Of a DNA stretch of 64,000 nucleotides, positions 2-47,116 are shown one piece after another. Each line of letters begins with the position of its first letter. The stretch's first letter is position 1. The position numbers and the translations under genes are program-made. The DNA is taken from sequence record LC373201.2; one strand, given 5' to 3'. Under the pieces are notes generated by a model. The model was not told the origin of the DNA and did not search any database. It worked only from the letters and a program-made list of their open reading frames with translations. The stretch comes from Enterobacter phage EspM4VN.

Positions 2-382
2 GTGAAGGACGTTCCTTACGTCCACCCTGACAACCCCAAGGGATTAACCCCACGGCAGATCTGGCTTCATCTCGGCAGCGATACGGGCTTGCGTTATGTG
101 CAGCCCGATCTGTTCCTGGCATTCTTCAAGCGCTTCCAGCTTCCTCTGGTAGAGCAGAACCCTCATGTACATTATATCGTGAGCGATCTGCGTACCCCTC
201 AGGAATATGAATGGGCGCTGAGTACGAAATGTCCTATCACCCGCATTTCAAAGGCCGACCGCGCTGGTATCATAGAGGACGATATAGAGGCTTTCATTGA
301 CAAGATGGAAGTCAACTACGAATTCCTCAATCCATTTGATGGTTGGGCACCGTTCGTTAAATTCTACGGAGAACGTAAATGA
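2..382 (+). CDS. 1: dNMP kinase (T4 gp1-like), C-terminal part; 5' end lies outside the window
   Basis: HYIVSDLRTPQEYEWA aligns with the T4 gp1 C-terminal YYIVPDTRQDHEMDAA block; sits with dCTPase and uvsX. Confidence 0.45.
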   Translation: MKDVPYVHPDNPKGLTPRQIWLHLGSDTGLRYVQPDLFLAFFKRFQLPLVEQNPHVHYIVSDLRTPQEYEWALSTKCPITRISKADRAGIIEDDIEAFIDKMEVNYEFLNPFDGWAPFVKFYGERK

Positions 383-933
383 TCACAGCAGGGCATATCC
401 AAAGCCTGCTCGAACTCCAAAAGGCCACCAATGTGGCCTACTTTGGGGAAGAGTGGAAGAATGTATGGAGTCAGAACGCAGTCGTCAACTCCATCTATCG
501 CGAGTGGGCAGAGTTCCTTGACGAAACCAGCCGCGACTGGAAGGTCTATGGCAATGACATCGGGTTTGACCACACGAATGCGGTCTATGAAATGGTTGAC
601 GTGGTACACTTCATGCTGTGCTTCATCCTTATGGACCGTACCAAAGGCGAGATCGAAGAAGAATTCGAAATCCTCAGTGGCCGCGAATTCACCCCATTTG
701 CTTTGGGTGCTGTTGGGCATCGCGGTGTGACGTATCGCCTTGGGCAGTTCATGAACGAACCTTGTGTCGAGACTCTCATGTTCTTCCTGTCAGCTGCGTG
801 TTCTTACATGGAGATCGATATTGAGACCTACATGCTGGCACACAAACGCAAGAACGATCGCAATCGTCTGCGTGCTGCTGGCGGCGCGGATTACGACAAG
901 TCTGCCGAAACCCCTCTGACCCTGGAGTTCTAA
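379..933 (+). CDS. 56: MazG-type all-alpha dNTP pyrophosphatase (T4 gp56 dCTPase/dUTPase-like)
   Basis: EMVDVVHFMLCFIL matches T4 gp56 ELVDIFHFVLNMFV; acidic EWAEFLDE helix typical of the MazG/dimeric dUTPase fold; ATGA overlap with upstream gene. Confidence 0.5.
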   Translation: MITAGHIQSLLELQKATNVAYFGEEWKNVWSQNAVVNSIYREWAEFLDETSRDWKVYGNDIGFDHTNAVYEMVDVVHFMLCFILMDRTKGEIEEEFEILSGREFTPFALGAVGHRGVTYRLGQFMNEPCVETLMFFLSAACSYMEIDIETYMLAHKRKNDRNRLRAAGGADYDKSAETPLTLEF

Positions 934-2858: not shown

Positions 2859-4292
2859 TTGCCAATGTTACTCGAATCTGTCGTGCTTTCACAGTTGATT
2901 TACAATGAGCAGTACCAAAGAAAGATCCAGCCGTACCTGAAAGCCGATTATTTTGACAACGAAGGCGAAAAGGTCATCTTCGGCCTGATTGACAGTTACA
3001 CCTCAGAGTACAATGCGCGCCCGTCTATCGAAGCGCTGTCGATCATCCTTGAGCGCACCAAACTGAACGAACATGTGTTTGAGCAGTCTATTGCGGCGCT
3101 TGAGAACATCAACGACAACACCTTCAACGAAGAGTGGTTGGTCAAAGAAACAGAGGCATGGGCGCGTCAAAAGGCTGTACACAACGCGATTAAGACTGCC
3201 GTTAACATCTATGGTGACGAGAAACGCAAGGATGAGATGAACAACATCCCGACCTTGCTGCAGGAAGCCCTGGCGATACAGTTCGATTCGTATCTTGGCC
3301 ATATCTACTGGGAAATGGCTGAGCAGCAGTACGACCACATGAACTCCAACGAAGCCAAGATCCCGTTCGCGGTTGAGATATTCAACAAGGCCACCCGTGG
3401 TGGTGTTGGTAAGAAGACCCTGAACATCGTCACAGGTGCGATCAACGCAGGTAAGACAACAACGCTGATTGATCTGGCAGGTGGTTACTCTGAGCAGGGG
3501 CTGAACGTCTTTGTATTCACCCTCGAAGTGGCCGAGAACGTCTGGCGTCACCGCCTTGATGCCCGTATGATGCGTCGTGACTTTGAGTCCTTAGAGAAGC
3601 TCCCAAGGCACGAATACATCGCCACGATAGAGAAGCTCCGCAGTCGTCAAGATGGCGCACCCAAGGGCGATATCGTCATCAAGGAATATCCGTCTGGCGC
3701 TGGGCACACAGGTTTATTCCGTCGCGACATCCTTGAGTACATCCAAGCAACAGGCCGCGCCCCTGACGTCATCATCATTGACTACCTTGGTGAAGCTGCT
3801 TCCTCGCGCCTACCTGCTCATCTGATGCAGAACACGAACGTCTATTACACGTCTGTGGCTCGTGAGTTCCGTGCGCTGGGATTTGAGTTTGATGTTCCTG
3901 TATGGACGGGTATGCAGTTCAACCGTGAGACTCAGAACAGCACTGACGGGGGCATCAGTGATCTGGCGGATGCTATCGGTATCCCGAAGGTGGCGGATTT
4001 CATCATGGCGTTCTATGCTCCTGACGAACTGGCGGCGGTCAAGAAAGCCCGAGCCTCAATCCTCAAGAACCGTTATGCCAACAAACAGAAGCTCAAGTCG
4101 TTCCTGTTTGGTATGGACCAAGACAAACAGATCCTGTTTGACCTGGACTGGAATGAGGTGAAGAAGGATCTGTCCGAGGCCGAGGCGAAGTATGTTGAGA
4201 ACGTACACATCAAACATGATCTCAACAAGTCAGGTTCGGCGACGAGCGATGAGCAGAAAGCCCAGACCGTTAATTCTTGGAATTTCGGTTAA
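2859..4292 (+). CDS. 41: DnaB-like replicative DNA helicase (T4 gp41)
   Basis: Walker A GAINAGKTT, DnaB-family architecture, syntenic with uvsX as in T4. Confidence 0.9.
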   Translation: MPMLLESVVLSQLIYNEQYQRKIQPYLKADYFDNEGEKVIFGLIDSYTSEYNARPSIEALSIILERTKLNEHVFEQSIAALENINDNTFNEEWLVKETEAWARQKAVHNAIKTAVNIYGDEKRKDEMNNIPTLLQEALAIQFDSYLGHIYWEMAEQQYDHMNSNEAKIPFAVEIFNKATRGGVGKKTLNIVTGAINAGKTTTLIDLAGGYSEQGLNVFVFTLEVAENVWRHRLDARMMRRDFESLEKLPRHEYIATIEKLRSRQDGAPKGDIVIKEYPSGAGHTGLFRRDILEYIQATGRAPDVIIIDYLGEAASSRLPAHLMQNTNVYYTSVAREFRALGFEFDVPVWTGMQFNRETQNSTDGGISDLADAIGIPKVADFIMAFYAPDELAAVKKARASILKNRYANKQKLKSFLFGMDQDKQILFDLDWNEVKKDLSEAEAKYVENVHIKHDLNKSGSATSDEQKAQTVNSWNFG

Positions 4293-4333
4293 ATTCAATA
4301 TCGTGGGTCATAGGGTATAATTCTATGATCTGA

Positions 4334-4690
4334 ATGTTAAACCAGGAGCACATCATGTTACACAATGATTTTATGGCTGGCCTGGTGCAGGCCGCCAAAC
4401 AGGTGTGCCACACCAAACAAACGATTGAACTGAGTCCGGAGCAGACTCTGGAGTTCTTTAACAATCGTAAAATCTGGGAGGAATATGGTATTGGCATGAT
4501 CTGCCAAGAGGGTGAACTCGTACAGCTGGATCTGCCGTCATTCCCCCTTCCAGTGCGCACCAACACAGTGGAATGGTATACGACGGAAGATGGTGTCGAG
4601 ATCATCCCGAAGTTCCAGTATCACTCAATCGTAAACTTCTTTTTACGCCGTTGCGGGACTAACCTGATCCCACAAGGCATGAGATCTTAA
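4334..4690 (+). CDS. hypothetical protein
   Basis: 118-aa ORF with RBS-like AGGAG upstream. Confidence 0.35.
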   Translation: MLNQEHIMLHNDFMAGLVQAAKQVCHTKQTIELSPEQTLEFFNNRKIWEEYGIGMICQEGELVQLDLPSFPLPVRTNTVEWYTTEDGVEIIPKFQYHSIVNFFLRRCGTNLIPQGMRS

Positions 4691-4705
4691 CAAGAGGAAC
4701 ACCAA

Positions 4706-5020
4706 ATGTCTGTAGAACAAATCGGCTTTTATGCACTGCCGTCTGATCCTGAAACCCGTCGCAAGCTGATGGGCGCTATCGAAAACTGTCGCGCCGCTTC
4801 AGTTCGCATCAAGTCGGAGCAGACCTTTATCACTGAGACCCTGGCCGAGCTGGCGAAGGAAACGGGCATCAAGGCCGCCGACCTGCGCAAGGTTGTGACT
4901 GACCGCGCCAACGGCACCTACGCCAAGACGATCGAAACGAGCGAGAAGTATCAGGACCTCTACGAGTCCCTGTTCCCGAACGCCAAGCCTGATCGCGACC
5001 CAAATACAGACGCTGAATAA
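4706..5020 (+). CDS. hypothetical small acidic protein
   Basis: 104-aa ORF, GAGGAAC RBS, followed by a terminator. Confidence 0.4.
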   Translation: MSVEQIGFYALPSDPETRRKLMGAIENCRAASVRIKSEQTFITETLAELAKETGIKAADLRKVVTDRANGTYAKTIETSEKYQDLYESLFPNAKPDRDPNTDAE

Positions 5021-6457: not shown

Positions 6458-6657
6458 TGAAACGTGAAATCATGGATGTGTACGAGCCTGGTTCTTGTTG
6501 TCCTGGCCATGACAAGTATCCATCCGATGCTTACAAGAATCGGCGTTCCAAAGCACAGCGCTCCAAGAGTATTAAGAAGGAGCACCGCCACGCTCGTCGT
6601 GTCAAGCGTCTGGGGTTGAAAGCTGACCTGAATACCATTACACGGGAGGACTTTTGA
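6457..6657 (+). CDS. small basic Cys/His protein
   Basis: 66 aa, CCPGH plus Arg/Lys-rich tail. Confidence 0.3.
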   Translation: MKREIMDVYEPGSCCPGHDKYPSDAYKNRRSKAQRSKSIKKEHRHARRVKRLGLKADLNTITREDF

Positions 6658-6869
6658 TGGAATGTTCATGCGGAGGGCAGGGCACAAGTGCTTACATGCC
6701 ATTTACCACTGTGAAGGAAGCCGAAGCCGCCGGATTTGCCGTAAGCAAGGCTCCATGCGTAATCGCCACGAAGGACTGCCCGTGCTGTAAGAGGCACTCT
6801 CAGGACGTCTTCTACGCCCCTGATGCCCGTCCGGCTACGGTCAACCTGCTTTCACTGATGAGGAAGTGA
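6654..6869 (+). CDS. small Cys-rich protein
   Basis: CSCGG ... CPCC motifs, 71 aa. Confidence 0.3.
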   Translation: MMECSCGGQGTSAYMPFTTVKEAEAAGFAVSKAPCVIATKDCPCCKRHSQDVFYAPDARPATVNLLSLMRK

Positions 6870-6870
6870 C

Positions 6871-7218
6871 ATGCGCGAGTATTTCAATTGGTTGCTGGGC
6901 AAGCCCCTGAGCGCCGAAATCCGTTGTCTGGTAGATGCTATCGACGCTGATGACGTTGAATGGAATGGCGAGCGCTTCGTCGGGATTGATGCTGTGATTT
7001 ACAACGGTGTTAGAGTGTATGCCTACACAGTCAACAGTTGTTCAGGTTATACTGTCGATATCGGTTTCCGTTCTGATTGTCTGCCTCGCCATGAAGCCAA
7101 GGCTGTGTACAGAGCCCTCGTCCGACATCATAAGCGCCGGATTAATCGCACAGAGACTCAGACCGAAATTAAAAATCGTGAAGAAGTCCGCAAGGCTCTG
7201 GGATTCCATAACAAATAA
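6871..7218 (+). CDS. hypothetical protein
   Basis: 115-aa ORF, tightly packed with neighbours. Confidence 0.35.
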   Translation: MREYFNWLLGKPLSAEIRCLVDAIDADDVEWNGERFVGIDAVIYNGVRVYAYTVNSCSGYTVDIGFRSDCLPRHEAKAVYRALVRHHKRRINRTETQTEIKNREEVRKALGFHNK

Positions 7219-7277
7219 TTCAATAAACGATTTACCCATATAATACATGGGAACTTACACAAACGAGGATTACACTA

Positions 7278-7886
7278 ATGTCACTGAAAAACTTACTGAA
7301 ACGCATCTTCACCACTGTTGAAGCCAACGTCACCACAGGTCTGGATAAACTGACCGACACCGAAAAGCGCCTGAACCTGGCTGCTCGCAAGCTGTCTGAC
7401 GAAATCCGTCGCCTGGAAGAAGCCCGTGTCACCAACGTTCGCAACGGTGTCAAGCTGAAGAAGACCGCCGAAGAGAACCTGGGTGAAGCTGCCAAGCGTG
7501 AACAGGTTCTGAAGGACGCTATCGCCCGTGGTGCAACCCCCGCTCGTGCAGAAGCCCTGATCGTCCTGCACCGCCGTCGTATCGGTGAAGCCCTGTTGGC
7601 TCAGGTGAAGGGCATCGAAGCGAGCAGCGACAAACTGAACGGCGCGATCATCCAGCTGGGCGACAAACTAGACGAAGTGAAGTCTAACCTCGAGCTGGTT
7701 CGTGTTCAGAAAGAGACCAACGACCTGGGTCTGGTGCTTCCTGAAGATATCGATTATGCCGCTGGTATGACCACCATCGATATCGATGCCATCCTGCGTG
7801 AAACCGAAATCGCTGATTCGAGCTACTCCGCCAACAGCCCGTCGTCTATCGAAGCTGACAACTACCTCGCCAGCCTGAGCAAATAA
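7278..7886 (+). CDS. PspA/IM30 (Vipp1) family coiled-coil protein
   Basis: N-terminus LKRIFTTVEANVTTGLDKLTDTEKRLNLAARKLSDEI parallels E. coli PspA [37 protein letters not shown]; about 150 aa of heptad coiled coil; extreme optimal-codon bias (ctg, cgt, gaa, aaa); GAGGA RBS. Confidence 0.6.
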   Translation: MSLKNLLKRIFTTVEANVTTGLDKLTDTEKRLNLAARKLSDEIRRLEEARVTNVRNGVKLKKTAEENLGEAAKREQVLKDAIARGATPARAEALIVLHRRRIGEALLAQVKGIEASSDKLNGAIIQLGDKLDEVKSNLELVRVQKETNDLGLVLPEDIDYAAGMTTIDIDAILRETEIADSSYSANSPSSIEADNYLASLSK

Positions 7887-18167: not shown

Positions 18168-18674
18168 TTACTTGTCAGGGTTCACTAAAACAGGGGTGGA
18201 TACTAGTTCGCCGTTCTTCACAGAATGCTGGACTACAGCAAACTGATCGACCATGCGATACACTTCAATCCCAGCAGCCAGCATCTCAATAATGCCGTCT
18301 GTGATCCGGTACGGTATATTGTAGATGACCTTCTTGATAGCGCAGCTTTTGATTATCAGCTGAGTGCAAACAGGGCATGGGCTGTGTGAGACGAACATCG
18401 TCAGATCAACGCGGTTGTCCAATGCTTCAGGGATGCGCATCAAAGCGTTCTCTTCTGCGTGGACAACCCCGACTGATACCAACTCACCGTCCACTTCTTG
18501 CTCACAGACATTAGGAGCGCCAGGAGCAGTCCCATTCCATCCGATGGCAACAGGTTGGTCGGTCTGTTCATCAACGATAACACAACCGACCTTCAGGCGC
18601 TGTGCATAGCTGGACAGAGCGTATGCATGAGCCGAGCGCATATGCGCAAACAACATACGGGGTTTGATAGCCAT
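18168..18674 (-). CDS. cd: dCMP deaminase
   Basis: Zinc-deaminase signature HAEENAL ... SPCPVC. Confidence 0.85.
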   Translation of the reverse strand: MAIKPRMLFAHMRSAHAYALSSYAQRLKVGCVIVDEQTDQPVAIGWNGTAPGAPNVCEQEVDGELVSVGVVHAEENALMRIPEALDNRVDLTMFVSHSPCPVCTQLIIKSCAIKKVIYNIPYRITDGIIEMLAAGIEVYRMVDQFAVVQHSVKNGELVSTPVLVNPDK

Positions 18675-21269: not shown

Positions 21270-22040
21270 TCACTTAGAGACTTTTTGCTCGAATACAGAC
21301 AGCTCATGGCGATGGCGCGCACAGGCGGGGCATTCACAGTTCTTTTTCAGAACGAGATATTCACACCAGGTCATCAGCCCGTAGATTGGAGACAGGGCTT
21401 CATAGAACCATGTCTTCTTCATGCTGGCGAGAGGGAAGAGAACGGTGATCTCATGCCCGTCTTTGGCCAACATGTTATAACCCTCCACGATCTTGTTGAA
21501 GGCAGGGATCCAGTGGAGAGCGTCGTCTCCGTTGACGTATGCCATCACATAAGTTCTTGGCAGTCCTCGATCAAAATGTCCACCCACGAATTGGGTGTTC
21601 ACCAACCACACAGGGGCTTGAGCCAGACAAGGCCGGAACTCACCAGACTGGATGCTCATTTTGCTGATCGGGGTTTCCCTGTGATGCCAATGAGTGTTCA
21701 ACCTCGGCGAATTGGCAGTTACCCACTCCCTGATCTTCTTGCGTGCCCAGTTCTCACGCTTCACCTTGAAGGAGTTGTTCTCCAGTTCGCAGTAGATGGT
21801 GTGAACTTCGTAGCCGTGAGCCAGCAACCAGAATAGCATGTACGTGCTGTCTACACCACCCGACCAGAACAGAGTAACCTTCTTGCCGTTGTATGCAAGA
21901 GGGTCTTTGTTGTTTGTCATAACATCGTGAACGAAATCACGGTCGTTTATTGATACGTTGATCATCATTCGCTTCCTAGTTTGTGGTGTGTTGACAGGAT
22001 TTCCTGACTTGGTGTATCTGCACCAAGGTAGACGATACAC
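21270..22040 (-). CDS. PP-loop ATP pyrophosphatase, QueC-like (7-cyano-7-deazaguanine synthase family candidate)
   Basis: PP-loop SGGVDS after beta strand KKVTLFW; C-terminal C-x8-C-x-C-x2-C cluster (CEYLVLKKNCECPAC) like the QueC zinc site; the true start is probably internal (MTNNKDPLAYNGKK...). Confidence 0.5.
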   Translation of the reverse strand: MYRLPWCRYTKSGNPVNTPQTRKRMMINVSINDRDFVHDVMTNNKDPLAYNGKKVTLFWSGGVDSTYMLFWLLAHGYEVHTIYCELENNSFKVKRENWARKKIREWVTANSPRLNTHWHHRETPISKMSIQSGEFRPCLAQAPVWLVNTQFVGGHFDRGLPRTYVMAYVNGDDALHWIPAFNKIVEGYNMLAKDGHEITVLFPLASMKKTWFYEALSPIYGLMTWCEYLVLKKNCECPACARHRHELSVFEQKVSK

Positions 22041-29146: not shown

Positions 29147-29728
29147 TTATAGACCAAATTTAATACGCCATTTTTCGACTTTGTGGTTAAATGCTTGCTC
29201 CACTTTGATACGGGTGGCCATCGTGCAATTGCTGTGCAGCGCCCCTTCTCCACATGCCATGCGTGCGACTTGTGTAATCAGTTGGGCAACAAGTCTCTCC
29301 AGAACGTCTTCACTGCGATAAGGCTGATTACACAATCGGATGATCCGGCCATGGTAATGGTGGATGAGGTTCAGATGCTTCTGGGGATCACGGTCAATCA
29401 GTCGGAACCAATCTTCTTCAAGATATTCGGGTGAACAATTGCTGTGCATCCCCAAACGCGTCTGCACCGAGTCAATCAACTCTTCTTTGGTCATACAGCC
29501 GTGCAGCTGCTGGTCTGTGAAATCCATGACGTACAGAAGGTCAATGGCAGAGATAATGACGTCGGCAACTTCACCATTCAACGGCTCAGAAGAGGCTATG
29601 CCGTGAAACACATCAGACAGTTCACAGATCTCTTCACCCAGTTTGTTCAGAACAAATACAGGCGAGCGGTTTGGCTCGTGCGCGGTGCAATCATAGGAAG
29701 TACCGACGATGGTGTGTATAAATTTCAT
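29147..29728 (-). CDS. MazG-like all-alpha NTP pyrophosphohydrolase candidate
   Basis: KLGEEICELSDV ... EVADVIISAIDLLYVM resembles the EExxE...D metal-binding helices of MazG/HisE. Confidence 0.35.
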   Translation of the reverse strand: MKFIHTIVGTSYDCTAHEPNRSPVFVLNKLGEEICELSDVFHGIASSEPLNGEVADVIISAIDLLYVMDFTDQQLHGCMTKEELIDSVQTRLGMHSNCSPEYLEEDWFRLIDRDPQKHLNLIHHYHGRIIRLCNQPYRSEDVLERLVAQLITQVARMACGEGALHSNCTMATRIKVEQAFNHKVEKWRIKFGL

Positions 29729-42744: not shown

Positions 42745-43980
42745 TCAGCGTTTCAAGAGTGCCATGAGGTTGACGCTGTTGGACTTCGGCTTTTCCTCAA
42801 CCTTGCGTACAGGCATCTTCAGGTTTGTACAGACCTCGGATGGTTCCCAGCGCGTACCCTTTTGCAGGTGCCAAATGTGTAGAGGGATACCAGTCTCAAA
42901 GAACACAGGCATCTTCCACTTCTGGACGCCTGGAACGTGCCCTGCAGGAGCCTTTTCGCACAACAGGGTATCTGGTAGCCAGAGTGATCGGGCTTCCCAG
43001 AGCGCTGCACAGGAGTACTCCGGCCAGATGCGTTCCATGTAGTCGATCTCATCCCAGGTACGCTCGGCATCCCACCCAATGTAACGGGTGTTCTTCTCGC
43101 GGAAGAACTTCTTCAGCCAACAGGCACCTGAGGTCTCAAAGTTCAGGCGGTTGATGAACGTCAGATGCCCGAACTCAGCCACGCAATCCTGGAACGCCTG
43201 TTCAAGGTCGGCCTCAAGGATATCACACTCTTCATCCGTGATAGGACAACCGTTGATCTTTTTCTTCCCGTGCTTAGTCACCCAGTCGTCACGGTTGGAC
43301 AAGAACGCCGCGCCGTTGCGGTTGGACTCACTACCATCGCGGTCACGCAGCATGAAACCGGGGACGTCGATATCCCACATGTTACCGAAGACCATGTTCA
43401 AGGCTTCCAGGAAGTTCCAGGCGCTCAGGCGGCCGAAGTATTTCCAGGACATCGCCGTTTCCCACAACTTAGTGAACTGGTCGCCTTGGGGCTTGGTCTC
43501 CAACATCGGTCGGAATGCTTCCATCTGGGAGCGCCCAGCCAGCCAGTCGATGTAAGACTGAACACATGGAATCATCTTGGACTTGCGGTAGCGGCAGTCG
43601 GTATCGAAGCGCATGCGATCAAAGTTCAGGTTGTACCAATCAGAGAAGCGCTGCATCTCTTCCTTAGACTGAGGAGGCACAGGGAACTCACTGTAGATCG
43701 TCCATGGACCGATGGCGTTATAGCAGCAGCCCCAAAGGAACGACATCCAGATCTTGCGCTCGACCTTCTCAAGCTGTGTGATGCCTTCAGTGACTTCGAT
43801 GGCATAGTCCATCAGACGCATCTGCTGGTTGTGCTCTTCGGTGTAGGACAGCGCCTCCACCCAAGCCTTGAGCAGGTACATGCGATTCTCAGGCTTGCGA
43901 TAGTCAACAGCCAGGTCAATCGGGTACTTCCATTCAGCCGGAGGCGTATAGCCCGTCGGCATTTTAGATAGATGGGTCAT
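42745..43980 (-). CDS. uncharacterised 411-aa enzyme; candidate DNA base-modification transferase
   Basis: Large, Trp/Cys-rich; sits with a P-loop kinase and a 5'-nucleotidase downstream of DNA polymerase, where T4 has hydroxymethylase and glucosyltransferase; no motif confirmed by eye. Confidence 0.3.
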   Translation of the reverse strand: MTHLSKMPTGYTPPAEWKYPIDLAVDYRKPENRMYLLKAWVEALSYTEEHNQQMRLMDYAIEVTEGITQLEKVERKIWMSFLWGCCYNAIGPWTIYSEFPVPPQSKEEMQRFSDWYNLNFDRMRFDTDCRYRKSKMIPCVQSYIDWLAGRSQMEAFRPMLETKPQGDQFTKLWETAMSWKYFGRLSAWNFLEALNMVFGNMWDIDVPGFMLRDRDGSESNRNGAAFLSNRDDWVTKHGKKKINGCPITDEECDILEADLEQAFQDCVAEFGHLTFINRLNFETSGACWLKKFFREKNTRYIGWDAERTWDEIDYMERIWPEYSCAALWEARSLWLPDTLLCEKAPAGHVPGVQKWKMPVFFETGIPLHIWHLQKGTRWEPSEVCTNLKMPVRKVEEKPKSNSVNLMALLKR

Positions 43981-44162
43981 CCGAGTTTACTCCCGAGTTC
44001 AACACGGAACGCCAGATAGAATAAAGTGGCGATCGATACAGGACAAATCACCAGGAAGGGGCGCTGCTCAACCCCTTCAGTCACCATGACGCCGACGAGC
44101 GATACCGTGAAGATAACGAACATCAGCATCATAAAGATAAAATCAACCGACCTGATCTTCAT
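43977..44162 (-). CDS. small membrane protein
   Basis: 61 aa, two hydrophobic helices. Confidence 0.3.
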   Translation of the reverse strand: MKIRSVDFIFMMLMFVIFTVSLVGVMVTEGVEQRPFLVICPVSIATLFYLAFRVELGSKLG

Positions 44163-44219
44163 CTTTCGCTTCCTCTTCAGGAGCCGCAGCTTCAGGAGCC
44201 AGCTGGATATCTTCCGGCT

Positions 44220-44651
44220 TCACGAACCCATCGGGCGCTCCCACATATCGATGAAGCGGCGGTCGGCGGTCACAAACCAAAGACGGGCTGCAGTGTGGGT
44301 CTTACCCGAGATGAACATCTGGGCATTCGTCTGGGTGCGGAACGGAGCCGCCTGCAACCACTTACCGAAGTCTTTGGACGACGGGTTGGCATTCAGCTGG
44401 AACTGAGGGATGACGCGGTTCTCTTCAGGAATCAGGCGCACAGCAGTAATGTGCTTGGCGTTTCCGGTGTAGTCAATTGCGACAGCCACAGCATCGCGAG
44501 GGATTTGAATTTTCATTTTGGTTCCTTGAATATTTTGTAACCAGCAGCGCCGATAGACATCACCGCGCCAATACAGTACATCACAGTCACGTTCAACTTC
44601 TCTGAGGTTGTTAAGTCCAGAGGAGTGAAATGATAGGCCAGGCCAGCGCAC
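44220..44651 (-). CDS. hypothetical protein
   Basis: ORF of 143 aa; an internal start at MKIQIPRD is plausible. Confidence 0.3.
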   Translation of the reverse strand: MRWPGLSFHSSGLNNLREVERDCDVLYWRGDVYRRCWLQNIQGTKMKIQIPRDAVAVAIDYTGNAKHITAVRLIPEENRVIPQFQLNANPSSKDFGKWLQAAPFRTQTNAQMFISGKTHTAARLWFVTADRRFIDMWERPMGS

Positions 44652-44716
44652 ATTGAAACGGCTGCCATAATCAGGCCGATGAACAACAGATAATTAGACA
44701 ACCGTTTCATGATCAC
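44513..44716 (-). CDS. small membrane protein
   Basis: 67 aa, two TM helices. Confidence 0.3.
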   Translation of the reverse strand: MIMKRLSNYLLFIGLIMAAVSMCAGLAYHFTPLDLTTSEKLNVTVMYCIGAVMSIGAAGYKIFKEPK

Positions 44717-45627
44717 CCCTTCTTCATCAGGTCAAGGAGAGAGCGCGACGCTGCCTTCGGTGCTTCTGGCTCGGCACTCGCCTTGGTTTTAGTTTTGGAT
44801 GCCTTCTGCGGCTTCTCAGGCACTCTGTGCGCCAAAGGATCCTGCCCACCGACCTCACGGGTCATTGGGTTGGTCTCACAGAAAGCATAGAAGTCTTTGC
44901 TGTAAAACCCATACGCTCGAGTTTCGTCCAATTGATGGTGGATAGCATTACCAACCACCCACAAAGGAGCATCGAACGGAAGGATAGCCACTTCTGAATT
45001 TGTCGGTGATTTGAACTCCTGGGTGTTGGTTTCCGGCGCTTTGTACAGAATGTCCTGCCCGCTGTAATTGTCTACCACAGGGGTGAAGCCCAGCGCCAGC
45101 ATTTCGGCCTTCGACTTCTCAAACTCCTTGGAGTAAGATTCGTTGCGTGACCAGCCAGAGTCCCCTGCTTCCTTACCAGAGCGCCCACGGATACGCGCAT
45201 CGTACTGGTAGCGGTCAGGGTATGCAAAGTACAGCAGCGCCAGAGATTCAATCGGATAGTTCTTGAACATCCATTCAGGACGCCATTTGTCCGACAACAT
45301 GAGGGGTTCACCCTCACAGACCAGGGTATACCCCTGAGCCAGCCAGCCTTTGACCAGATCACGAGCGATGTCACCGGATCCTGTGGCGGCATGAACGCCG
45401 TCCATAGAAGTCCATGAAGCCAGACCGGACTTGTTGGACACAGTGTACTGGCCGACGAAGATTAACTTCAGCTCTTCGAATTTCAGGCCAAACGGGCGCG
45501 TCTTGTCGCCGATAGTGTAGGTCAGTTCGGTAGGCTCCAGCTTCGTACGGAGCCATTCGATGAACTGTACGACACGAGTGCCTTTACCCGTGCCGGAGGT
45601 TCCTTTGATTACGATGATCTTTGCCAT
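44713..45627 (-). CDS. P-loop kinase (nucleotide or polynucleotide 5'-kinase family; candidate modified-base DNA kinase)
   Basis: Walker A GTSGTGKGT at the N-terminus; 304 aa; Lys/Ala/Pro-rich C-terminal tail. Confidence 0.5.
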   Translation of the reverse strand: MAKIIVIKGTSGTGKGTRVVQFIEWLRTKLEPTELTYTIGDKTRPFGLKFEELKLIFVGQYTVSNKSGLASWTSMDGVHAATGSGDIARDLVKGWLAQGYTLVCEGEPLMLSDKWRPEWMFKNYPIESLALLYFAYPDRYQYDARIRGRSGKEAGDSGWSRNESYSKEFEKSKAEMLALGFTPVVDNYSGQDILYKAPETNTQEFKSPTNSEVAILPFDAPLWVVGNAIHHQLDETRAYGFYSKDFYAFCETNPMTREVGGQDPLAHRVPEKPQKASKTKTKASAEPEAPKAASRSLLDLMKKG

Positions 45628-45932
45628 TATACAGCATCCTCAATACGCCAGCTCACGCCGCCCATCCAAGGTGCCCAGAATACAGCAACCTGCAGACGAC
45701 CGTTTTCTTCAAACTTCACTTTATACTGGTCGTCGAAGTTATAGAAGATTTCATCCGCTTCAGAGCGCTGACCGATCTCCACCAGTACGTCATGGAGAGC
45801 CTTGGCTGCGCCGATAGGAGTCGGAGTCTCCTGGCGACGAATGAAGTTGTTCACATGGATAATCACTCCATCCATATCACTATCACCAGAGCGTTTGTCT
45901 GGGGTTTCCCCGAACTTATTCTGTTCTTGCAC
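45627..45932 (-). CDS. hypothetical protein
   Basis: 101-aa ORF. Confidence 0.3.
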   Translation of the reverse strand: MQEQNKFGETPDKRSGDSDMDGVIIHVNNFIRRQETPTPIGAAKALHDVLVEIGQRSEADEIFYNFDDQYKVKFEENGRLQVAVFWAPWMGGVSWRIEDAV

Positions 45933-45941
45933 GATGTCCTC

Positions 45942-46700
45942 CTATCGGACGTATTGATAATGACCAATCAAGCGGTTCACCACTTCAACAATATTGTGAT
46001 TCAGGAAGTCGAAGTGGTTCTGGCCTTCTACTGGTTTAATATAAAGCATATCTTCCGAGTTCGAAAGATCCAGTTTTTCATAATTGCCCTGAGGAACAAA
46101 GATGACGAAGATGTTGTTCAGGCCGCATGGCTCGACATACTTCGGATTGTCATCAATCAGGACATCGCCAGCCAGCAGGTGCTTTTCGTCGGTGCTGACA
46201 AACCCGTTGAAGATGCCTGGGAACTTGTCGTAGACAAACTGGCGCTTGCTGCGCTCGTGTTCCGGCTCGCACTTAGACACTGCGATGAATTCAACATTGT
46301 CAAAGTCTTCGAGCAGAATCTTCTTCAGATTCACTAAGAACTCGTAAGCACCAGGGAGCGGGTTCATCTTGGCATACAGGTCAGGGCGACGCCACCAGTC
46401 CATAGGATCGTTACCGCTCGGCACACGTTGTTTGTGCAGCCCCAATTGGACTTCACGGTACAGCCACGCCGGATGCGCACGTTCGCGCATCAGGATAGCC
46501 AGGTCGCCAGCATGGGCCATATAGCACTCTTTGGTGATCGGCTGGAATGGCGCTGGTCCATGACCGTCATAGTGCTTGGACACGCTGAGGTTGTCTTCGT
46601 TGAACCACTGTACCCAAGGGAGAGGCTATCAACCAGCGTCAGGTCAACATCCACGAGGACGCGATACAGACCACCGACCTTTGATTTCATATCATAGAGG
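45942..46700 (-). CDS. HAD-family 5'(3')-deoxyribonucleotidase-like protein, frame interrupted near 46630-46640
   Basis: MKSKVGGLYRVLVDVDLTLVDS (DxDxT) in one frame continues as LPWVQWFNEDNL...GHGPAPF in the next; junction ctcccttggg. Confidence 0.5.
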
Positions 46701-46713
46701 CAGACCAGGTTGT

Positions 46714-47055
46714 TCATTTGTCTTCCTCAACTTTGTCATAGCCTGTAGCAACACACTGTTCTTCTGTGCAATCAGCGTACAGAACAACAGACGCCTGCTT
46801 CACATAGGTGGTGCAGTGGTAGGTTTCGTCTTCCTGGATGGAATCGTCATAGTTGCAGACAGTCTGCAGGGGACCAGGAGTGGTGTTTTCCAGAGCCGCA
46901 TGAGCCTTGATGGTGTCTTCCATCTTAGACGTGGCCTGCTCATTAGTGAACGTCGGCGCGTCGAGGTCAACGGTAGACGCAACGTCCAGTAAGGTGGAGC
47001 ATGCGGTGGTAGAGAAAGCCAGAGCACACACCAGAAGAATCTTATTGAGTTTCAT
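46714..47055 (-). CDS. lipoprotein (signal peptide plus lipobox)
   Basis: MKLNKILLVCALAFSTTAC; occupies the immunity/superinfection-exclusion position next to the DNA polymerase gene. Confidence 0.4.
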   Translation of the reverse strand: MKLNKILLVCALAFSTTACSTLLDVASTVDLDAPTFTNEQATSKMEDTIKAHAALENTTPGPLQTVCNYDDSIQEDETYHCTTYVKQASVVLYADCTEEQCVATGYDKVEEDK

Positions 47056-47116
47056 TTCAATCACCTGTTTGTCAAAGGATAACAGGGGGAATTATATCCC
47101 CCTTTGGTTTATTGAA

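Follow-up and report, generated by a model that had tools for sequence, protein, structure and literature searches.

Enterobacter phage EspM4VN very probably carries the core of the Ackermannviridae thymidine-hypermodification pathway, with two of its genes close downstream of the DNA polymerase gene

The region downstream of the DNA polymerase gene of Enterobacter phage EspM4VN (positions 42745–46700 of a 64,000-nt stretch of record LC373201.2, the whole of which is called the window below) very probably holds the core of the Ackermannviridae thymidine-hypermodification pathway to 5-(2-aminoethoxy)methyl-2'-deoxyuridine (5-NeOmdU), with the genes of two enzymes in the region itself and that of a third about 10 kb away. 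The three are a kinase acting on 5-hydroxymethyl-2'-deoxyuridine (5-hmdU) in DNA, an amino-acid:DNA transferase and a pyridoxal phosphate (PLP)-dependent decarboxylase. All are orthologous to characterised proteins of phage ViI (Vi01; Lee et al. 2018 PNAS, 2021/22 NAR), which supports the thymidine-hypermodification reading offered by a first-pass annotation of the same DNA. That annotation had spoken of a candidate modification cluster; the cluster and the type of chemistry stand, and the system is not new, having already been published as a family-wide one. The analysis establishes the protein families, the orthology, the conservation of the catalytic residues and the synteny, and from the likeness of the enzymes to those of ViI we infer that this phage produces 5-NeOmdU. 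By its DNA, the phage is of the Ackermannviridae, Aglimvirinae, Agtrevirus-like: the modification region has 92% DNA identity to Salmonella phage P46FS4 and about 90% to Shigella phage Ag3, SKML-39 and MK-13, and the first 25 kb of the window matches the same four phages at about 89% identity and 88% coverage.

In lysates, the ViI proteins gp67, gp160, gp226, gp243 and gp247 convert 5-hmdU DNA to the native base, 5-NeOmdU (PMC5889632). In ViI, CBA120, CBA6 and Vibrio phage 1.255.O this base takes the place of about 40% of T (PMC5889632), and in phiHS2 of about 16%. Ag3 and SKML-39, the nearest relatives of the window phage, belong to the ViI-like group predicted by Lee et al. in 2018 to carry 5-NeOmdU (PMC5889632). 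A 2024 review describes the pathway genes as conserved throughout the Ackermannviridae, and a 2026 preprint gives confirmation of 5-NeOmdU by liquid chromatography–mass spectrometry in a Taipeivirus. The likeness between the window and ViI extends from the proteins, with orthologs at 86% (gp243), 91% (gp247) and 92% (gp226) identity and an unchanged P-loop, invariant Cys and Glu, and PLP lysine, to the order of the genes. In ViI this order is polA, orf237, orf239, orf240, orf243, orf244, orf245, orf247, and by product it is that of the window: polymerase, lipoprotein, NT5C, DUF7254, kinase, small open reading frames (ORFs), transferase. The two phages differ in that ViI is a Kuttervirus whereas the window is Aglimvirinae/Agtrevirus-like, and in that the window has a frameshifted NT5C gene, a PLP protein shorter by 27 N-terminal residues and a slightly different arrangement of its 98-aa and 61-aa ORFs.

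The kinase gene (44713–45627, minus strand) encodes 304 aa that match the Pfam family PF18747 (HMUD2, '5-hmdU DNA kinase 2') at 526.5 bits (E 2e-158), with residues 1–303 lying on profile positions 1–298 of 298. The protein is 86% identical to ViI gp243, and the P-loop GTSGTGKGT at residues 9–17 is the same in both. The first-pass annotation had suspected a 5-hmdU DNA kinase in this Walker-A protein, and comparison with the 5-HMUDK families, among which HMUD2 is matched over its full length, bears that out. No guanylate-kinase Pfam match was found at E ≤ 0.1, and phmmer against the PDB sequences returned nothing at E ≤ 1. Purified ViI gp67 and gp243 phosphorylate 5-hmdU within DNA in vitro (PMC8989533). 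Given 86% identity to gp243, the window kinase would be expected to phosphorylate the 5-hydroxymethyl group of 5-hmdU in DNA. In RefSeq/PHROG and public records (NC_015296, NC_049509 and others) the HMUD2 kinase carries the name 'guanylate kinase'.

About 0.7 kb downstream of the kinase lies the transferase gene (42745–43980, minus strand), and in Vibrio, Aeromonas and metagenomic relatives the two genes are adjacent. Its 411-aa product belongs to the Pfam family ADDT (PF18724; 207 bits, E 4.5e-61, cut-off 26.2), the match spanning profile positions 2–231 of 232. ADDT is the former aGPT-Pplase clade 2 (aGPT-Pplase2), and a sub-threshold match to the related aGPT-Pplase3 was also seen; the earlier guess that the 411-aa protein is a pyrophosphorylase-type base transferase is thus upheld by the family to which it belongs, and likewise by its closest ortholog and its fold. 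Over 411 aa it is 91% identical to ViI gp247, with 35 differing positions, C113S and E121D among them. ViI gp247 adds free L-serine via the side-chain oxygen to 5-phosphomethyl-2'-deoxyuridine (5-PmdU) (PMC8989533), and on the strength of this identity the window transferase would likewise move free serine, via its oxygen, onto 5-PmdU DNA. Public records name the ADDT transferase 'hypothetical protein' or 'thioredoxin-like', most of them the former.

ViI gp247 and M6 gp51 depend on a conserved Cys with a Glu close by, and mutants in these residues are inactive (PMC8989533). Aligned across 32 homologs with identities as low as 39%, the window transferase keeps just two cysteines without exception, C129 and C287, and four glutamates, E74, E192, E282 and E311. 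Based on this invariance and on an alignment to Cys247 of PaMx11 gp46, the catalytic residues are predicted to be Cys287 and Glu282, in the motif E-T-S-G-A-C-W. In the crystal structure of PaMx11 gp46 (PUGT), Cys247 is the nucleophile while Glu243 and Thr244 bind metal (PMC11472151), and hhalign pairs E282-T-S-G-A-C287 of the window with E243-T-I-L-C247 of that protein.

An AlphaFold (AF2) model of the transferase, calculated from a homolog alignment without the ViI row, reached a predicted local distance difference test score (pLDDT) of 89.7. With this model, the top two Foldseek matches in the PDB were 8Z2N and 8Z2M (probability 1.00, template modelling score 0.54 on target), well apart from the rest. 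Model and fold search together point to an all-helical, DNA-glycosylase-like fold in common with the solved family member. The link to PaMx11 gp46 needed hhalign, Pfam and the fold search: phmmer of the 411-aa protein against the PDB sequences found nothing at E ≤ 1, and a PDB sequence search with a profile of the 32 ADDT homologs gave a Rab protein as its sole match, which was judged spurious. PaMx11 gp46, a 5-PmdU glycinyltransferase (PDB 8Z2M/8Z2N), thus shares the Pfam family ADDT and the aligned catalytic E-T-x-x-C motif with the window transferase and is its best structural match. The two are nevertheless only about 15% identical, with 292 aa in PaMx11 gp46 against 411 aa in the window, and gp46 adds glycine via N whereas the window protein, judged by gp247, would add serine via O. 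PaMx11 is also a siphovirus; its gp46 is without the polymerase-like C-terminal tail described below, and no clamp gene was present in the region examined.

The third enzyme is encoded at 53628–54821 (minus strand), about 10 kb from the kinase and transferase genes, and had already been drawn into the hypermodification system by the first-pass annotation. It is 92% identical to ViI gp226, and its Schiff-base lysine, K65 in the conserved INGSKLRQ, corresponds to ViI K92. ViI gp226 is a PLP decarboxylase that turns O-serinyl-T into 5-NeOmdU, with K92 as the predicted Schiff-base lysine (PMC8989533). The window protein is without 27 variable N-terminal residues of ViI gp226 and its RPN242 counterpart, owing to an in-frame deletion just after the shared start codon. 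Upstream of the gene, a leader of about 70 nt (54821–54890, minus strand) has 100% identity among the window, ViI and RPN242, and its flanks diverge. An RNA hairpin is predicted here (54821–54875, minus strand; minimum free energy -25.1 kcal/mol, z = -5.3), with the Shine-Dalgarno GGAG and the A of the PLP start codon lying within the predicted stem. The hairpin matches no Rfam family in a scan of the whole window, which returned three tRNAs only (clustered at 56911–57672, minus strand; Rfam tRNA 55–76 bits). It was also considered as a repeated element and rejected, being present in a single copy in the window.

On the model of the ViI proteins, the pathway in this phage would begin with a dCMP deaminase supplying dUMP, which a thymidylate-synthase-like dUMP hydroxymethylase, encoded just outside the window, would convert to 5-hmdUMP. 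The phage deoxynucleoside monophosphate (dNMP) kinase would help to phosphorylate 5-hmdUMP, and the polymerase would put the product into DNA. On the DNA polymer, the HMUD2 kinase would then form 5-PmdU by passing the gamma-phosphate of ATP on to the 5-hydroxymethyl group. Cys287 of the transferase would attack C6, the phosphate would leave and an exocyclic methylene would form, to which the same enzyme would add the side-chain hydroxyl of free L-serine, yielding O-serinyl-thymidine. Finally, the PLP enzyme, through Lys65, would decarboxylate O-serinyl-thymidine to 5-NeOmdU.

The early steps are represented in the window by several nucleotide-pool genes, the existence of which had been correctly called before. 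The left edge of the window cuts the dNMP-kinase gene at what is residue 64 in the ViI homolog, leaving the 3' part (2–382, plus strand; ViI 'dnk' homolog, phrog_139), which by tblastn is 92% identical to residues 64–189 of ViI orf65; the enzyme may feed 5-hmdUMP towards the triphosphate. The gene at 379–933 (plus strand) encodes an all-alpha NTP pyrophosphohydrolase (dUTPase_2, PF08761, 33.8 bits; phrog_173) with 62% identity to ViI orf63. The dCMP deaminase that would supply dUMP (18168–18674, minus strand; dCMP_cyt_deam_1, 65.7 bits) shares 65% identity with its ViI counterpart. The second of the two pyrophosphatases that the first-pass annotation called MazG-type, at 29147–29728 (minus strand), is a MazG-like homolog by PHROG (phrog_1247) with 49% identity to ViI orf11 and no Pfam match at E ≤ 0.01. 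These nucleotide-pool enzymes presumably serve the pathway. A QueC-like gene of the ATP-pyrophosphatase type was also seen at 21270–22040 (minus strand; PF06508, 28.5 bits; 61% identity to a ViI 'QueC-like' ORF).

Searches by tblastn with the ViI thyA-like protein (orf66), gp67 and gp160, which belong to the Pfam families Thymidylat_synt, HMUDK_HMUD1 and HMUDK_hel, respectively, gave no match anywhere in the window. The earlier remark that the window contains no thymidylate-synthase-like hydroxymethylase was therefore correct. This is a limit of the window and not of the genome. In P46FS4, the closest relative, a thymidylate-synthase-like gene and a gp67-type kinase gene are found immediately to the left of the counterpart of window base 1, the hydroxymethylase gene at a distance of about 190 nt from that edge; gp160 is about 50 kb away in ViI. 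The gp67-type HMUD1 kinase is misannotated as 'terminase small subunit' in P46FS4 and public records.

Several points weigh against the assignment of these genes to 5-NeOmdU synthesis. Only half of the six pathway genes fall within the window; the presence of the other three (dUMP hydroxymethylase, gp67 and gp160) is deduced from synteny. The PLP protein stays below the Pfam PALP gathering score, at 31.5 against 35 (E 1.5e-7). The hhalign alignment to PaMx11 gp46 on which Cys287 is based is weak overall (probability 1.1%, E 0.047), and the replacements C113S and E121D relative to gp247 could in principle matter; both lie in non-conserved columns. The NT5C gene next to the kinase region is frameshifted, which indicates some local decay or a sequencing error. 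Finally, which base is made in the end is judged from the 86–92% identity to the ViI enzymes.

This last point leaves room for the same machinery making another final base, with glycine, putrescine or another amino acid in place of serine as the nucleophile. Substrates do vary among ADDT proteins, from glycine (M6 gp51, PaMx11 gp46) to serine (ViI gp247) and putrescine (PhiW-14 gp109) (PMC8989533), a diaminopropane variant was reported in 2026, and the window protein carries 35 substitutions relative to gp247. It is, however, 91% identical to gp247 with all family-invariant residues retained, and its partner, the PLP decarboxylase, is 92% identical to gp226. The same 301-Da nucleoside is moreover present in Vibrio phage 1.255.O, called ViI-like by the authors (PMC5889632); in the Vibrio-phage ADDT homologs that we compared, identity to the window protein is only about 49%. 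A final base other than 5-NeOmdU is on this evidence very unlikely.

The frameshift raises a second alternative, namely that it marks loss of the pathway and that the module is decaying, leaving DNA that is unmodified or carries only 5-hmdU. The gene concerned (45942–46717, minus strand) was annotated at first pass as an HAD 5'-nucleotidase; the family is right, with NT5C matches of 33–35 bits indicating a 5'(3')-deoxyribonucleotidase-like protein, but the gene is not intact. In alignments, the CTCTCCCC of relatives is shortened to CTCTCCC in the window, one C being gone from a C4 run at about 46618–46621, and this 1-nt deletion splits the gene. The N-terminal 75-aa ORF (46490–46717) holds HAD motif I, DVDLTLVDSLS. 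The remainder forms a 213-aa ORF (45942–46583) in a different frame (PWVQWFNED... in the three-frame translation), with an NT5C score of 33 bits against a cut-off of 24.8. Repair of the frame gives a 258-aa protein in which the NT5C match is kept. Relatives have a single NT5C ORF of 258–260 aa, the two nearest being exactly 1 nt longer, and intact homologs with motif I adjoin the polymerase in Vibrio and Aeromonas phages. A programmed frameshift was considered unlikely, the site being a plain C-run and the nearest relatives having a continuous ORF; the frameshift may be a sequencing error or a real pseudogene.

Besides the NT5C deletion, the 27-residue N-terminal deletion of the PLP protein relative to ViI could be taken as a sign of decay. 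That deletion is in frame and falls in a variable stretch, however, with start codon and leader unchanged, and the ORFs of all three enzymes run to full length, their catalytic residues intact. NT5C is not among the five proteins sufficient for reconstitution (PMC5889632), and a single homopolymer indel is a typical sequencing error. We therefore regard a decaying module as extremely unlikely. The word 'nucleotidase' is not mentioned in PMC5889632, and no role for the HAD gene was found in the ViI papers. An NT5C gene, or an unannotated gene in its slot, accompanies ADDT in most loci examined; a part for it in the pathway, for example in draining dTMP, is conjecture. The remaining alternative, that the public labels are right, the 304-aa protein being a guanylate or nucleotide kinase for free nucleotides and the 411-aa protein having no nucleic-acid function, can appeal to 'guanylate kinase' in RefSeq/PHROG and 'hypothetical' in most records, and is scarcely conceivable against the 526-bit match to the curated family HMUD2 with no guanylate-kinase match at the threshold given above, the action of the ViI ortholog gp243 on 5-hmdU in DNA (PMC8989533), and the ADDT membership of the 411-aa protein, which among solved structures comes closest to a 5-PmdU glycinyltransferase bound to DNA.

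In the ORF list, 42745–47064 is a run of co-oriented minus-strand genes directly downstream of the polymerase gene, and those that the first-pass annotation named there all exist on that strand. Several neighbouring genes of the run overlap by 1–4 nt, as would be expected of one transcription and translation unit. The polymerase itself (47117–50116, minus strand) is a family-B, T4-type enzyme of 999 aa, syntenic with ViI polA. A promoter-like site and a hairpin were seen between its gene and that of a DUF7292 lipoprotein-like protein (46714–47064, minus strand; PF23964, 181 bits), a context gene not implicated in modification. The nucleotidase gene is followed by one for a 101-aa DUF7254 protein (45627–45932, minus strand; PF23912, 176 bits), conserved between nucleotidase and kinase; its slot is occupied in ViI, RPN242, P46FS4 and Bue1 too.

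Three small genes, all on the minus strand, lie between kinase and transferase. The first (44513–44716; phrog_4514) encodes a hydrophobic protein of 67 aa, overlaps the kinase stop by 4 nt and has ViI orf244 in the same position. The second (44220–44516; phrog_4163, ViI homolog orf245) encodes about 98 aa and probably starts at the ATG at 44516, within a 143-aa ORF, because the PHROG match starts only at residue 46 of that ORF. The third (43977–44162; phrog_7943 'membrane protein') encodes a small membrane protein of 61 aa and overlaps the transferase start by 4 nt. Small ORFs are not present between kinase and transferase genes in the Vibrio, Aeromonas and metagenomic relatives; those of the window, including the 61-aa one, are therefore probably outside the pathway, and they were rejected as components of it.

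In many relatives (P46FS4, Ag3, RPN242 and Vibrio D531), a SegD-like homing endonuclease gene is inserted between DUF7254 and the kinase (for example at 7039–7725 of locus L001 and 4118–4804 of locus L003). The window is without it upstream of the kinase (between 45627 and 45628). PHROG 15209 models an endonuclease–kinase fusion.

A modification cluster beside the polymerase, as first proposed, matches a compact arrangement retained by distant relatives. In Vibrio D531 and Aeromonas phiA8-29, whose transferases are about 49% identical to the window protein, the block consists of polymerase, NT5C, a small ORF, a homing endonuclease in some genomes, HMUD2, ADDT and a gp160-like gene, followed after a gap by gp67-like (detected only in phiA8-29), thyA, dnk and dUTPase genes. 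A different arrangement was seen in a T4-like contig (L011, Logan ERR12510853, 8616–11734), where a Tet/JBP dioxygenase gene stands directly upstream of an ADDT homolog with 68% identity to the window protein, and genes for a Ploopntkinase3-type kinase and NT5C come after. The arrangement resembles a variant of the pathway, one where oxidation of T on the DNA would take the place of 5-hmdU incorporation.

The C-termini of the modification enzymes resemble that of the polymerase. The transferase ends in SVNLMALLKR (42748–42777, minus strand), the kinase in SRSLLDLMKKG (44716–44748), preceded by a low-complexity K/A/P/E linker, the polymerase in RRVNLLAMMQKKKG (47120–47161) and ViI gp160 in SVNLLDRLKKPE. 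In the AF2 model of the transferase, residues 381–402 have pLDDT <60, as a linker, and residues 405–410 form a short helix. A strict scan for such tails among window ORFs of at least 60 aa returned no more than three proteins: polymerase, transferase and a small Cys-rich one (CPCC) of about 70 aa (6657–6869, plus strand; phrog_4789), which ends in ATVNLLSLMRK and whose ViI homolog ends in KVNLLSLMRK; a looser scan added the kinase and a few out-of-frame ORFs. The polymerase-like tail is absent from gp67, gp226 and thyA.

We compared the tails across the window and eight further loci (L002, L005, L007, L008, L011, L013, L014 and L016). In Vibrio D531, the polymerase ends in ARKLW, HMUD2 in TKKLW, ADDT in TRKLW and the gp160-like protein (HMUDK_hel) in TKRLW; an LW ending occurs in 4 of its 115 ORFs, which are exactly these four proteins. 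The corresponding endings in contig L013 are SALW, NDLW and SSLW (two HMUD2 endings), NALW and NSLW, and here too the 5 LW endings among 118 ORFs are exactly those of the five tailed proteins. Contig L014 has ARRLF (polymerase), KRLW (HMUD2), ARRLF (ADDT) and TRKLF (gp160-like/HMUDK_hel). Erwinia Bue1 has RRVNLMAMLKK... (polymerase), NSILRHFGASK (HMUD2) and NNLLSLFGR (ADDT), and the T4-like contig with the Tet/JBP gene has VSLEDFFS (polymerase) and ELSLFDF (ADDT). Aeromonas phiA8-29 is the one exception: its enzymes share KKLW or a close variant (HMUD2 TKKLW, ADDT TKRLW, gp160-like/HMUDK_hel TKKLW), and its polymerase ends in VNVLKFFK. Across lineages the tail types VNLLxMM, [KR][KR]LW, RRLF, xALW and SLFDF thus co-vary with the polymerase in most cases, not in all.

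In T4, the similar C-termini of gp43, gp55 and gp33, carried on flexible linkers, are interchangeable clamp-binding epitopes (PMC2988020). T4 alpha-glucosyltransferase binds the gp45 clamp, and ViI encodes homologs of gp45, gp44 and gp62; in the phage studied here, the clamp gene lies outside the window. By T4 logic, the shared tails and their covariation with the polymerase therefore suggest clamp tethering: they are candidate sliding-clamp-binding peptides through which kinase, transferase and gp160 could be held on gp45-type clamps on new DNA, a proposal to which we give about an even chance of being right. T4 offers a precedent for a DNA-modifying enzyme on a phage clamp and for unrelated proteins sharing the polymerase C-terminal epitope, as kinase, transferase and gp160 do here. 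It differs in that its modification is glucosylation of 5-hydroxymethylcytosine and its motif acidic and hydrophobic rather than basic and hydrophobic; clamp binding by the hypermodification enzymes is, unlike that of the T4 proteins, only inferred. We met the clamp-tethering idea neither in the Lee papers (2018, 2021/22) nor in the paper on the gp46 structure, nor in full-text searches. Binding of eukaryotic DNMT1 to PCNA would be a further parallel.

The pathway itself is a re-identification, and the added value of the analysis lies in the covariation of the tails. For annotation, it means that the kinase and the transferase, listed in this phage group as 'guanylate kinase' and 'hypothetical protein', should be renamed 5-hmdU DNA kinase and serine:DNA transferase, respectively. 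Modification of the 5-NeOmdU type blocks many restriction endonucleases; the DNA of this phage would be expected to resist many restriction enzymes and may distort some sequencing chemistries. If the tails do tether the enzymes to the clamp, modification would be coupled to replication, in parallel to T4 alpha-glucosyltransferase and gp45. The tethering would account for the way in which hypermodification enzymes acting after replication locate freshly made DNA, and perhaps also for the modification of no more than a fraction of sites.

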